DNA of 59,764 nt from Thermoproteota archaeon (GTDB lineage Archaea; Thermoproteota; Thermoprotei; Gearchaeales; Gearchaeaceae): positions 1 to 59,764 of the forward strand of contig JAVVGB010000002.1 of assembly GCA_032249315.1 (NCBI GenBank). Direction: 5' to 3'. Positions 10,566 to 59,287 of the stretch are shown here, one piece after another. A program made the translations under genes and the position numbers. The notes below the pieces were generated by a model. It was not told where the DNA came from, did not search any database, and saw nothing but the letters and a program-made list of their open reading frames with translations. Numbering within the stretch: the stretch's first letter is position 1; every line of letters begins with the position of its first letter.

Positions 10566-10804
10566 AAGAATTATCTCATTTATAAGTTATAAAATGAGCG
10601 CCAGAAAAACCCATAGCTTTAATTCTGAATGAATAAGCAAAGCTTAAATAGTTGTAAAAATTATTCCAAAGGTTAAAGAAAAGATATAATTATGAGAGAT
10701 GATAGTTTATAGGCTAAACTAGTATATAAATAGGAACGCTTCCTTGAAAGAGCTCAATATAGCCCATAGATTAATGAGAGCTATGGGATGAGAAGTTTTG
10801 AGCT

Positions 10805-10860
10805 TCTCAAATAAGCAAATGAGGAGATAGGGGAAAACCCTACTCTAAATGCTGGTAGCT
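10805..10860. repeat. copy A of a ~57-nt hairpin-bearing element flanking atpI
   Basis: Hand alignment to 12986-13042. The 44-nt gapless core (10817-10860) has 37/44 identities and includes the exact 15-mer AAACCCTACTCTAAA. The hairpin is at 10824-10845. The atpI stop codon lies inside the element. Confidence 0.75.
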
Positions 10861-12911
10861 TCGCCCTTTAGGGCGGAGTAGCTCAGTCGAGTATAATTTC
10901 CTTCTTTTAGAAACCTTCTAAATTCTTTTCCGTCGCCATAATAAAACTTAGTAAACCATTCATATAAATGCAATCTTAATGCTTGTATGAACACTATGAA
11001 ACCTTCCATTAAAATTATACCTATATTACCAAATATAAGAGCAATTGTAACAACTATGGTAGTAATAATTGGATTACCAAGATAAATATTGGTCACAAGG
11101 TTTAGATTTAATAATAATGCGGTATGAACTATTACCAATATAGCTAATCGTACATAGCTGATCGTATTTGAAAGTAATCTCGTTATTGAATCAAATACTT
11201 CTATGGCTCCTTCACCCAAATAACTTTTAAGCTTTACTTCAGCTCCATGCTCAAATCTGTGAGCTAGATATTTAAATGAAAATATTAAAGCTAATCCAAA
11301 AAGAGATAACACGGAGAAAACTTTAGAGTATATGTGAGCAGGAATGCCTAAAATTAAGCTTGAACCGTATGCAAAATTGTTAAAATTAAAACCTACTACT
11401 ATTAGACCATACATTAAAAAAACGCTGGAAAGATAGAAAGTTAAATAAGCTATTCCACCTAATATATCCTCATAATTTTTAGCAATTATACCGTTTACAA
11501 ATCTAATAAACATACCTAATGTGATATGAATTACTCCGATTATTAAACTAAGTTGAATTACGAATAAGATCGTAGCAGGATTCATTTCCTTTGTTTTATG
11601 ATTCATCAATTCCAATATTGGTTCATATTTAATAAAAGGAATCCCAAAACCGAAAAATTCACCATAAATAAGTCCAAAAATCATACTAGAAACGCCCAAA
11701 CACATAATTAAAATTCCCCATCGCTTTAAATTACCTAAAGTTTTAACATATAAAAGAATACCAAGTAAGAACAATATGAGCCCTCCTCCAAAATCAGCAA
11801 ACATATAACCATAGAAGATTGAAAAAAAGAAGAAAATAAAAGGTGTTGGATCAATTTCATTATATCTTGCTTTCCCGTGCATATTGGTTATTAATTCAAA
11901 CGCATTAATTATAGGTTTATTTAATATTAAAGAAGGAGCGTTGTTAATTTCGTTTTTATTTAATTCATAATACTCTACATAAGCTAAATCCTTCAAATGA
12001 AGAGAAAATTGAGTTTTCATTCTCGCTGGAATGTATCCTTCAATAATTATAAAATGCTTTGTAACTTTAGAGAACTTTAAATTTAAAGCGTTTAAATACT
12101 GCAGATAAATTAACTCATATACTTCCAATAGCTCATTATACTTTTCCTTAATCGTTTTATCAATAAAGGCTGAGATTTCATCAATCTTTTTCTTTAATTC
12201 ATTTATTTCTATATTTAATTTATTCAAATATTCCTCAATATTTAATCCATAAAATTCTTTTACATTAATGACTTTTATGTCCAAACTTCCCAATATTCTA
12301 TTTAATTTTTCTTGAAACAGAGGTTTTGCAATTAGTAATGTTACATATTTATCTTCGGTTACCTTTTCACTTACAATGAATACTTCAGAAGGAAGACTCT
12401 TCTGTAATTCAATTAATGATTTCTCAGTAGTTACAACTAGAGTAATAAGAAAATTTTTAATTGTAAGAAACTTAGATATAGGTATTTTAATTTTTTGGAA
12501 ATATGTTAAATACTCTCTTAAAGACTCTTTTTCGCCTACTTCTTTAATTTTTTTCCTTTTTTCTTCAATATAAGGCATAAAAGTATTTTTAAGAAAATTA
12601 ATTTTTTGTTTTGAAAAATTTAAAAAATCTTCAATTGAAACGAAATCATAAACATTCTTTTTATACTTTTCTTTTGATAATAAATAATCTAAAACCCCAA
12701 ATTCTTTTTTAACATTTAATTCGCTTAGTAAACTATCCATTTCTGAAGAAAATTTACTTAAATTTTGTATCAAATATGAGCCATATTCTGTTTTTTCTTC
12801 TCTTAATTCATTTACATGAAAGTATTCAAAATCGATCAACTTACTAATAAGCTTATCTAAATTTGATTTTGAAGTTATAATGTAGGCTTTGTTTAATTTT
12901 TCTACCCCCAT
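10845..12911 (-). CDS. atpI: A-type ATP synthase subunit I (membrane a-subunit homologue)
   Basis: 688 aa. Soluble N-terminal half plus a polytopic C-terminal half with the conserved SYVRLAILV...H and ALRLHLYEWFTKFY motifs. It is the only ATPase gene on the minus strand. Confidence 0.9.
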   Translation of the reverse strand: MGVEKLNKAYIITSKSNLDKLISKLIDFEYFHVNELREEKTEYGSYLIQNLSKFSSEMDSLLSELNVKKEFGVLDYLLSKEKYKKNVYDFVSIEDFLNFSKQKINFLKNTFMPYIEEKRKKIKEVGEKESLREYLTYFQKIKIPISKFLTIKNFLITLVVTTEKSLIELQKSLPSEVFIVSEKVTEDKYVTLLIAKPLFQEKLNRILGSLDIKVINVKEFYGLNIEEYLNKLNIEINELKKKIDEISAFIDKTIKEKYNELLEVYELIYLQYLNALNLKFSKVTKHFIIIEGYIPARMKTQFSLHLKDLAYVEYYELNKNEINNAPSLILNKPIINAFELITNMHGKARYNEIDPTPFIFFFFSIFYGYMFADFGGGLILFLLGILLYVKTLGNLKRWGILIMCLGVSSMIFGLIYGEFFGFGIPFIKYEPILELMNHKTKEMNPATILFVIQLSLIIGVIHITLGMFIRFVNGIIAKNYEDILGGIAYLTFYLSSVFLMYGLIVVGFNFNNFAYGSSLILGIPAHIYSKVFSVLSLFGLALIFSFKYLAHRFEHGAEVKLKSYLGEGAIEVFDSITRLLSNTISYVRLAILVIVHTALLLNLNLVTNIYLGNPIITTIVVTIALIFGNIGIILMEGFIVFIQALRLHLYEWFTKFYYGDGKEFRRFLKEGNYTRLSYSALKGEATSI

Positions 12912-12985
12912 TTATTCAAAATTTTTCATTTTCTAGTATATTAATTTTCTACGTATGATTACCATTGTTTAGCTATTTGAAAGAA

Positions 12986-13042
12986 TCTCCAAACATGAAA
13001 ATGAAGAGCTAGGGGTAAACCCTACTCTAAACACCGGAAGCT
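12986..13042. repeat. copy B of the ~57-nt hairpin-bearing element flanking atpI
   Basis: Direct-orientation paralogue of 10805-10860. The hairpin is at 13006-13027. It lies 75-131 nt upstream of the atpI start and ~110 nt upstream of atpF. Confidence 0.75.
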
Positions 13043-13152
13043 CCTAAATTTAGTCGTGGATTGGCTCGCTCAACTAAGGTATATATTTCTAACTAACAAA
13101 ACAAAATTTCATGGTAAAAAAATATGTAAGAAAAATAATCAAATAATATTTA

Positions 13153-55506: not shown

Positions 55507-55620
55507 TAAAACTTTTAAATGCTTACTATGAAAAACTTTTTATAATCCTCCGACTCAATCCATGCACTAAAAGGCGAGTTTTTAAATTATAAGATAAAAC
55601 TTCTCGTTTAATAAGCTTCA

Positions 55621-55893: not shown

Positions 55894-55988
55894 GGGGCCG
55901 TAGTTCAGCTTGGTTAGAATGCTTAAAGCATGACCAAAATGTGCGGCTTGGGACCGCATGGTCCCAGGTTCAAATCCTGGCGGCCCCA
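55894..55988 (+). tRNA. tRNA-Pro (UGG) with a ~20-nt intron at a non-canonical position (around nt 26/27)
   Basis: Hand fold. Acceptor GGGGCCG/CGGCCCC. D arm 55903-55920. Anticodon arm TGCGG-CTTGGGA-CCGCA (55942-55958). T arm CCAGG-TTCAAAT-CCTGG. An extra 20 nt (55922-55941, with register ambiguous because AATG is duplicated) separates position 26 from the anticodon stem. Confidence 0.78.
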
Positions 55989-59183: not shown

Positions 59184-59287
59184 GCCGGGGTCATCTAGCC
59201 TGGCTAGGATGCCGGACTCATAATGCTATGCCAAGGGTCAGGCATGCGTGAAATCCGGTGTCGTGGGTTCAAATCCCACCCCCGGCA
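59184..59287 (+). tRNA. tRNA with CAU anticodon (elongator Met or Ile2) carrying a ~30-nt intron at the canonical 37/38 site
   Basis: Hand fold. Acceptor GCCGGGG/CCCCGGC. Anticodon stem CCGGA/TCCGG. Loop CTCATA-[intron 59223-59252]-A. T arm GTGGG-TTCAAAT-CCCAC. A G1:C72 pair argues against an initiator. Confidence 0.88.

Follow-up and report, generated by a model that had tools for sequence, protein, structure and literature searches.

Among described genetic systems, the closest to the subject of this analysis are the tnpB-only (IS1341-type) insertion sequences of the IS200/IS605 family, together with the RNAs and remnants associated with them. Elements of this family are small transposons common in archaea; they bring along the RNA-guided nuclease TnpB and its guide, the omega-RNA, with which TnpB cleaves targets that match the flank. 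The RNA family HgcC has been linked both to palindrome-associated transposable elements, or PATEs, and to RNAs from the 3′ ends of tnpB genes of the IS1341 type (Gomes-Filho et al., PMC4615843). Protein-less PATE-like elements and standalone omega-RNAs have already been described (PMC10055086, PMC10691335); these come from haloarchaea and Geobacillus stearothermophilus, and both their transcription and their use in trans were proposed (PMC4615843, PMC10055086, PMC10691335). The locus considered here lies in a 59,764-nucleotide (nt) stretch of DNA from a Thermoproteota archaeon (contig JAVVGB010000002.1; hereafter, the window), where two direct copies of a structured repeat, copies A and B, bracket the A-type ATPase gene atpI. 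We conclude with high confidence that both repeats are right ends of two insertion sequences of the IS200/IS605 family, of the tnpB-only, IS1341 type.

The setting is the A-type ATPase operon, in a window of ~29% GC overall. Of the A-type ATPase genes, only atpI is on the minus strand, with plus-strand atpH-atpC on one side and plus-strand atpF-E-A-B-D on the other.

10845–12911, minus strand: atpI, A-type ATPase subunit I (Pfam V_ATPase_I annotation).

A repeat search of the window returned one outstanding direct pair, 10808–10871 versus 12990–13053 (64 nt, 77% identity). A 22-nt core of the repeat, with three or fewer mismatches allowed, occurs exactly twice in the window and has no match in 100 shuffles, and local GC peaks coincide with both copies (0.55 and 0.48). 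The pair had been described in an earlier note on this DNA, several particulars of which were reproduced: recomputing its 44-nt core gave the same 37/44 identities; the exact 15-mer AAACCCTACTCTAAA is present at 10835 and 13017 and nowhere else in the window; CTA at 10845–10847, within the 15-mer, is the minus-strand stop codon of atpI; and the direct orientation of the copies speaks, as was argued, against an invertible switch. The ~57-nt unit proposed there is a real repeat but too short. Measured against the wider family described below, the homologous unit spans 10757–10886 in copy A and 12980/12988–13069 in copy B, and the tail that had been dismissed as ~50% similar is genuine homology with one indel.

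The nature of copy A emerges from comparison with related loci that are empty at the same position. Relative to L004, whose AtpI is 92% identical, and L001 (79%), the window carries a precise insertion of 296 nt at 10591–10886. In both relatives, atpC and atpI converge with a few tens of nt between them; without the insertion, the corresponding spacer in the window is 10 nt. The reverse complement of L004 runs uninterrupted across the site as tcatttataagttat/tcgagtataatttcc (slashes mark the insertion point), and in the window these two halves are separated by 296 nt, the left one at 10576–10590 and the right one from 10887, giving the junction tcatttataagTTAT/.../tcgagtataattt. The empty site of L004 thus reads TTAT/TCGAG, and zero target bases are duplicated in the filled site. 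The insertion point lies four codons ahead of the old atpI stop, and the last 13 codons plus stop of the present gene (10845–10886) come from the insert, such that AtpI ends in ...YTR/LSYSALKGEATSI-stop instead of ...YTR/ITYK-stop. Thirteen contigs, from several samples, encode this same 688-residue AtpI.

Both ends of the insert are recognizable. A left-end profile built from L086 and L093 only, with the window excluded, matches 10592–10763 (E = 3e-28), and the right-end profile matches 10757–10885 (E = 3e-33). The alignment to L093/L086 continues through ccTTGAAAGAG(A/C)TCAA and then skips to the RuvC-III region of tnpB, with the first four tnpB codons (TTG AAA GAG CTC) kept in copy A. At four independent junctions, those of the window, L093, L086/L108, and L105, TTAT stands immediately before the left end AAAATG(A/G)G. 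At 296 nt, with matches to both end profiles and a relic open reading frame (ORF) of a mere 15 codons in place of a protein gene, copy A is a non-autonomous element and, judged by these alignments, an internally deleted derivative of a full-length TnpB element. Its parts are as follows, MITE standing for miniature inverted-repeat transposable element and TAM for target-adjacent motif.

10591–10886, plus strand: internally deleted, non-autonomous IS200/IS605-family element, PATE/MITE-like, with its left end joined to its right end and without tnpB (from the insertion and the profiles).
10576–10590, minus strand: relic of the ancestral atpI end, codons ITYK and a TGA stop, severed by the insertion (from the L004 comparison).
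10587–10590, plus strand: TTAT target motif beside the left end, which the cognate TnpB would be expected to use as its TAM (from the empty site and the other junctions).
10610–10629, plus strand: decayed left-end subterminal hairpin, cccatagc-ttta-attctgaa, with ~4/8 pairs left as counted by reading.
10723–10791, plus strand: region of the promoter-like TATA and relic ORF (from the L093/L086 alignment).
10723–10732, plus strand: tatataaata, a tnpB promoter-like TATA with putative promoter function.
10744–10791, plus strand: 15-codon relic ORF from TTG 10744 to TGA 10791, tnpB codons 1–4 fused to the C-terminal ...NIAHRLMRAMG.
10759–10886, plus strand: right end, an omega-RNA-like five-helix scaffold that includes copy A of the earlier note (covariance model, 134 bits; copy A was in the seed).
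10859–10878, plus strand: right-end subterminal hairpin, CTTCGCCC-TTTA-GGGCGGAG, the same hairpin as at the left ends of class-ii mini elements.
10887–10906, plus strand: flank directly 3′ of the right end (TCGAGTATAATTTCCTTCTT), at the position of a putative omega-RNA guide and antisense to the atpI 3′ end.

The hairpins extend to the family at large. The left-end hairpin is intact in L093 (cccagagc-ttta-gctctggg in the alignment with the window), whose left end has CCCAGAGC-TTTA-GCTCTGGG. The right-end hairpin, CGCCC-TTTA-GGGCG, recurs at class-ii mini-element left ends and has a compensatory variant, CTCCCGAC-TTTA-GTCGTGGAG, in L083/L084/L093/L105. A MITE of the classic type, which would have inverted repeats at its termini and duplicate its target, was considered and rejected: end complementarity is confined to the 5 nt of TGAGC/GCTCA, and there is no duplication.

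Other contigs of the same organism also bear on this element. In L102, which is 99.6% identical to window 15911–10587, the copy A left end (at L102 5326–5892) is joined to a different flank, ..ggatatttttct/AAAATGAGCGCC, which adjoins an ORF resembling a CBS-domain protein by eye; the junction reflects either a second genomic copy or a chimeric assembly. Two further contigs, L103 and L104, break off within the copy A element. These breaks and the L102 junction are signs that the element is repeated in the window organism.

The identity of the element is established by its wider family. A metagenome scan for GGGGNAAACCCTACTCTAAA (19 specified bases) returned 18 loci, all of which share a ~130-nt block ending in ...GCTCAC, with unrelated sequence beyond. 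This is the same boundary as the one defined by the empty site of the window, and every family member diverges directly after ...GCTCA(C/G). In L083, L093, L096, L098, and L108, the block forms the 3′ end of an ORF of 396–419 amino acids whose C-terminus reads ...CHRCGH..CPNCG..YNRDLNACINIAHRLMRSMGWGSCEPPKPANEE(I/L)GVNPTLNAGSFAL. The encoded protein scores 121.9 bits against NCBIfam NF040570, guided_TnpB (cutoff 100), and 66.7 bits against Pfam PF07282, and it matches solved TnpB/Cas12f structures in the PDB. The D-E-D site motifs VDIGE, MEDIT, and RDLNA and a CxxC..CxxC zinc ribbon can be read in the full-length relatives, and more than 500 homologues in thermophilic TACK archaea are named IS605 OrfB or RNA-guided endonuclease TnpB. 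The exact 15-mer shared by copies A and B corresponds to the codons ..V-N-P-T-L-N of the TnpB tail in full-length elements. Only these relatives encode TnpB, the gene having been lost from the window copies, and none of the full-length loci has a tnpA between the left end and tnpB, an IS1341-type layout. Protein-less derivatives with a different left end also occur (L081, L084, L087, L090, L091, and L092), and their left-end hairpin, CTCGCCCTTTAGGGCGGGG, is the same as the right-end hairpin. Ten candidate ORFs of the window proved unrelated to tnpB, a TnpB tail of the copy A type (...GENPTLN) is absent among 120 homologues, and viral contigs gave no match to the element. A TnpB-like locus of a different kind was seen in L110 (1–1721), where two divergent PF07282 genes are adjacent; the contig comes from a sample shared with one window-organism contig, has 47% GC, and probably belongs to another organism.

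Beyond its coding role, the right end is a conserved RNA structure. RNAalifold, run on ten close copies, produced five helices, and a covariance model built from those copies finds nothing in the window besides copies A and B. Right ends of TnpBs that are only 62–67% identical were added to the structure alignment. Across 18 distinct family rows, 97.5% of the cells are paired, versus 33–50% with the partners slid, and in 16 of 36 pairs both partners vary, which none of 500 shuffles equalled. The hairpin singled out in the earlier note is one helix of this larger fold.

10824–10845, plus strand: helix 4 of the scaffold, which codes for E-(I/L)-G-V-N-P-T-L of the TnpB tail in full-length elements.

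Compensatory changes are found in 5/9 pairs of helix 4 across the family. Its innermost pair alternates between G-C and C-G (11 vs. 7 of the 18 distinct rows), a flip that accompanies the N/K difference in GV(N/K)P of the TnpB tail. Several pairs are predominantly G-U, for which pairing is possible on the plus (tnpB sense) strand only; thus, the structure belongs to the tnpB sense strand, which is the plus strand of the window. With its five helices, its overlap with the 3′ end of tnpB, and its abrupt stop at GCTCAC, the right end has the makeup of an omega-RNA scaffold. In keeping with this, the only sub-threshold Rfam matches noted are TnpB-associated RNAs: HgcC (RF00062) aligns over its full length to copy A on the plus strand at 10787–10900 (23.4 bits, E = 0.002 in a 401-nt search), and sot0042 (RF02656) matches L096. 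At the gathering threshold, a whole-window Rfam search did not match HgcC. Among the alternatives offered in the earlier note, “two small structured RNAs” comes nearest: the repeat does lie within a conserved, covarying RNA scaffold, but the copies are right ends of TnpB insertion sequences. A related observation concerns the protein side. More than 100 archaeal TnpBs (P0001–P0120 C-termini) have the common tail MGWGSCEPPxPAxExxGVKPxLNAGS, encoded by the stretch that forms RNA helices 2–5 (columns 34–130 of alignment A2); this tail may be conserved mainly owing to the RNA structure, an example of dual constraint.

Given so well folded an RNA, one might suppose that the copies are paralogous host small-RNA genes of an HgcC-like family, with a cellular function and a merely secondary likeness to transposon ends. 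GC peaks are indeed typical of structured RNAs in AT-rich thermophiles, the full-length HgcC match of copy A and the family covariation would suit such a gene, the copy A fold is strong (z = −4.6 vs. shuffles), and the recurrence of the insert-derived AtpI tail across contigs and samples implies a stably kept insertion. However, copy A is accompanied by the left end of a transposon, the relic of a tnpB start, and TTAT at its junction, and is missing in the closest relatives, while the RNA overlaps tnpB in full-length members and copy B has neither helices 1–2 nor a fold distinguishable from shuffled sequence. We therefore hold a host small RNA to be very unlikely. Other RNA identities were tried and discarded. 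GGGCGGAGTAGCTCAG appears tRNA-like, yet neither ARAGORN nor Rfam places a tRNA or split-tRNA fragment there. AUGAGGA and AUGAAGA resemble the C box of a C/D-box RNA, yet there is no conserved D box, and the only snoRNA match, with H/ACA RNAs also considered, is at chance level (E = 4.5).

The second repeat belongs to the same family but is in far worse repair.

12980–13069, plus strand: copy B, the 5′-truncated, degenerate right end of a second element (covariance model, 50.2 bits, E = 6e-11, outside the seed).

A profile search with nhmmer recovers copy B at E = 5e-17 (envelope 12967–13072). Helices 1 and 2 are absent, helices 3 and 5 contain non-standard pairs, helix 4 is intact, and the sequence folds no better than its shuffles (z = −0.46). 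The left-end profile found no left end near copy B, which therefore falls outside the PATE definition. Over the right end, copies A and B are 72% identical to each other, while copy A is 91% identical to the L087 type and copy B 84% identical to the L083 type. Each copy thus resembles a different metagenomic sublineage more than it resembles its counterpart, which argues for two independent insertions of two sublineages and against a duplication. An orthologous, decayed copy B in L001 was suggested by pairwise alignment and abandoned, as nhmmer found nothing. Elsewhere in the metagenomes, L085 (1390–1451) and L089 (186–248) contain 5′-truncated right-end copies that begin from helix 4, near the start of the recognizable homology of copy B; in L089, the copy forms an in-frame fusion with an upstream ORF. 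This pattern may point to a recurrent truncation point.

How, then, do the repeats relate to the odd orientation of atpI? Loci encoding AtpI relatives were collected, and the ATPase subunits of the window were placed on them by tblastn. The order atpC→ ←atpI atpF→ is common to L001–L005, L048, and many Nitrososphaerota and Bathyarchaeota loci, which have atpB-A-E-F upstream and atpC downstream of atpI, both on the opposite strand, with spacers of 6–61 nt. The right-end profile has no significant match in any relative's ATPase locus, and L004 and L001, the closest readable relatives, are without an insertion at the copy A site. Since the inverted order is shared with relatives that do not have the element, the inversion of atpI is ancient, independent of the repeats, and not caused by them. 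The long spacers beside atpI remarked upon earlier do exist, but they are no feature of the gene arrangement: spacers in relatives stay within 6–61 nt, the atpF–atpI spacer of L001 excepted. That spacer (L001 86–292, from the YNPFFA single-cell genome) is 207 nt long versus ~60 nt in L002, L003, and L048, and has no detectable homology to the element. Two observations that the earlier note had coupled hence part company: an inverted atpI without the element in relatives sinks relocation of the gene, while further copies and covariation were found and the element is real.

These comparisons dispose of the regulatory and recombinational readings. A duplicated terminator or insulator module, shielding the inverted atpI against the ATPase transcription units of the plus strand, was attractive in that the copies sit at both borders of the sole minus-strand gene and, read on the minus strand, short T runs follow the hairpin of each. 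Yet relatives with the same gene order make do with spacers of 6–61 nt and no such module, the conserved G-U pairs form on the plus strand only, and copy B lies upstream of atpI and its conserved promoter and downstream of no minus-strand gene. The copies are, moreover, right ends of TnpB insertion sequences from different sublineages rather than one module duplicated, and we deem this reading extremely improbable, its minus-strand terminator included. Still less can be said for recombination footprints (att-like sites) left by the relocation or inversion of atpI as a cassette. Direct repeats do bracket a lone gene oriented unlike the rest of its operon, but the arrangement is common to Thermoproteota, Nitrososphaerota, and Bathyarchaeota loci, the copy A site is empty in L004 and L001, the right-end profile finds nothing in relatives' loci, copy A is part of a complete mini transposon that has two ends of its own, and the copies, only 72% alike, are each closer to other elements; this reading is already contradicted, and next to no probability attaches to it. 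Equally hard to credit is the idea that splicing of the atpI mRNA, at an archaeal bulge-helix-bulge intron, restores ...YTR-ITYK-stop: the reading frame is interrupted precisely, with the ancestral last four codons and stop retained downstream, and the insertion ends UGAGC...GCUCA can pair, but the canonical motif (a 4-bp helix with two 3-nt bulges) could not be drawn by hand at the junctions, ACUC 5′ of the first junction has no GAGU partner before the second, and the ends are transposon ends whose homologues flank tnpB.

Directly shown are the end homology to TnpB elements, the empty site, TTAT, the covarying structure, the old age of the atpI inversion, and the rewritten AtpI tail. Several points nevertheless weigh against the reading of both repeats as right ends of IS1341-type insertion sequences. 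The 60-kb window contains no tnpB or tnpA, and tblastn with 120 family TnpBs finds tail relics only; a cognate nuclease or transposase in the genome of the window organism is thus hypothetical. One junction, possibly an assembly chimera, has TTCT instead of TTAT. L001, the sole relative covering the copy B spacer, is too diverged to fix the left boundary of that copy. The Rfam scores are far under gathering (HgcC, 23.4 vs. 50; sot0042, 21.4 vs. 88). The alignment behind the covariation counts had been fitted to the model, but RNAalifold arrived at the same structure without it. Finally, the left-end hairpin of copy A is decayed and its helix 3 has one mismatch, and the element may simply be dead.

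The probable course of events can nonetheless be outlined. In full-length elements, the right-end ~130 nt codes for the last ~40 residues of TnpB, includes the subterminal end hairpin, and would also form the omega-RNA scaffold, with the guide transcribed from the DNA just past the element end. The copy A element has retained the left end together with the putative promoter and codons 1–4 of tnpB, followed by the tnpB 3′ end and the right end; it landed 3′ of TTAT without target duplication, giving AtpI a new 13-residue tail and stop. Copy B is an older, 5′-truncated right end of another sublineage, lodged in the divergent atpF/atpI spacer. Insertion of IS200/IS605 elements is strand-specific or strand-biased and coupled to replication, and the shared orientation of copies A and B is compatible with such a process. 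Of the two, copy B is probably inert. Copy A may be a standalone omega-RNA transcribed from the retained promoter, a role suggested by the known mechanism of TnpB (PMC10055086, PMC10691335). Its putative guide (TCGAGTATAATTTCC...) and TTAT as the TAM would together specify the empty site, and a TnpB encoded elsewhere could use this guide in trans. A bolder version is that copy A is alive as a domesticated standalone omega-RNA, expressed from the tnpB promoter that it has kept, its guide being antisense to the 3′ end of atpI, and that a TnpB or a nuclease-dead TnpB-like protein elsewhere uses this RNA to police the atp locus or to modulate atpI expression; we give this only a slim chance. Policing, if true, would enforce retention of the insertion at the atp locus, and modulation would affect ATPase stator stoichiometry, an archaeal analogue of TnpB-derived RNA-guided transcription factors.

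In sum, an apparent puzzle of operon architecture gives way to an ordinary explanation, in which transposon insertions have left behind, as scars, both the long spacers and the odd C-terminus of AtpI in this lineage. An essential membrane subunit, AtpI, has tolerated the exchange of its last 4 residues for 13 encoded by the transposon, in an allele present in several samples. The analysis also delimits the ends, the probable TTAT TAM, and a covariation-backed five-helix omega-RNA scaffold for a large clade of compact TnpBs (~400 amino acids) from thermophilic TACK archaea, a delimitation that may be of use in genome-editing surveys, and adds support for the orphan Rfam family HgcC and its relatives as TnpB guide RNAs. 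Farther along the window, just downstream of the 5S rRNA gene, 55558–55587 (minus strand; cTTATaatttaaaaactcgccttttagtgcatgg) weakly resembles a class-ii mini-element left end (nhmmer E = 0.03) and may be a third relic with a left end only. Two tRNAs of 95 and 104 nt on the plus strand (55894–55988 and 59184–59287) were reported by Rfam and not by ARAGORN, and presumably contain introns.

Set against the known systems, the elements of this locus combine familiar features in a reduced form. Like the IS1341-type IS200/IS605 elements (ISDra2, ISGst elements), they insert 3′ of a short conserved motif without target duplication and have a subterminal hairpin at each end in place of terminal inverted repeats, the left-end hairpin of the window having decayed. 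A structured RNA over the tnpB 3′ end stops at the right-end boundary, where the flank would supply the guide, and the full-length relatives pass the NCBIfam guided_TnpB cutoff. Unlike those elements, the window holds remnants only, copy A having lost tnpB but for 15 codons and copy B being a truncated right end. The Y1 (HUH) transposase TnpA, which mobilises the IS200/IS605 family in cis or in trans, was seen in no locus examined. For this archaeal clade, TTAT is a putative TAM, and processing of the omega-RNA and activity of the nuclease are likewise putative. With HgcC (RF00062) and sot0042 (RF02656), the scaffold shares its character as a GC-rich RNA of AT-rich archaea linked to tnpB 3′ ends, the terminal hairpin CGCCCUUxAGGGCG, and matches over the full model length; it differs in scoring far below their gathering thresholds. 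The scaffold is evidently an RNA family related to these two but distinct by Rfam score, within the same RNA class. Like PATEs and standalone omega-RNAs, copy A is short and protein-less, with fused left and right ends and a preserved omega-RNA scaffold. It departs from them in having arisen through an internal deletion that spared the promoter and the start codon of tnpB, in a decayed left-end hairpin with which mobility was perhaps lost, and in lying not between genes but within the coding end of an essential ATPase gene. Copy A is, accordingly, a PATE-like, internally deleted IS1341-type element and copy B a solo right-end relic, both of a kind already known.

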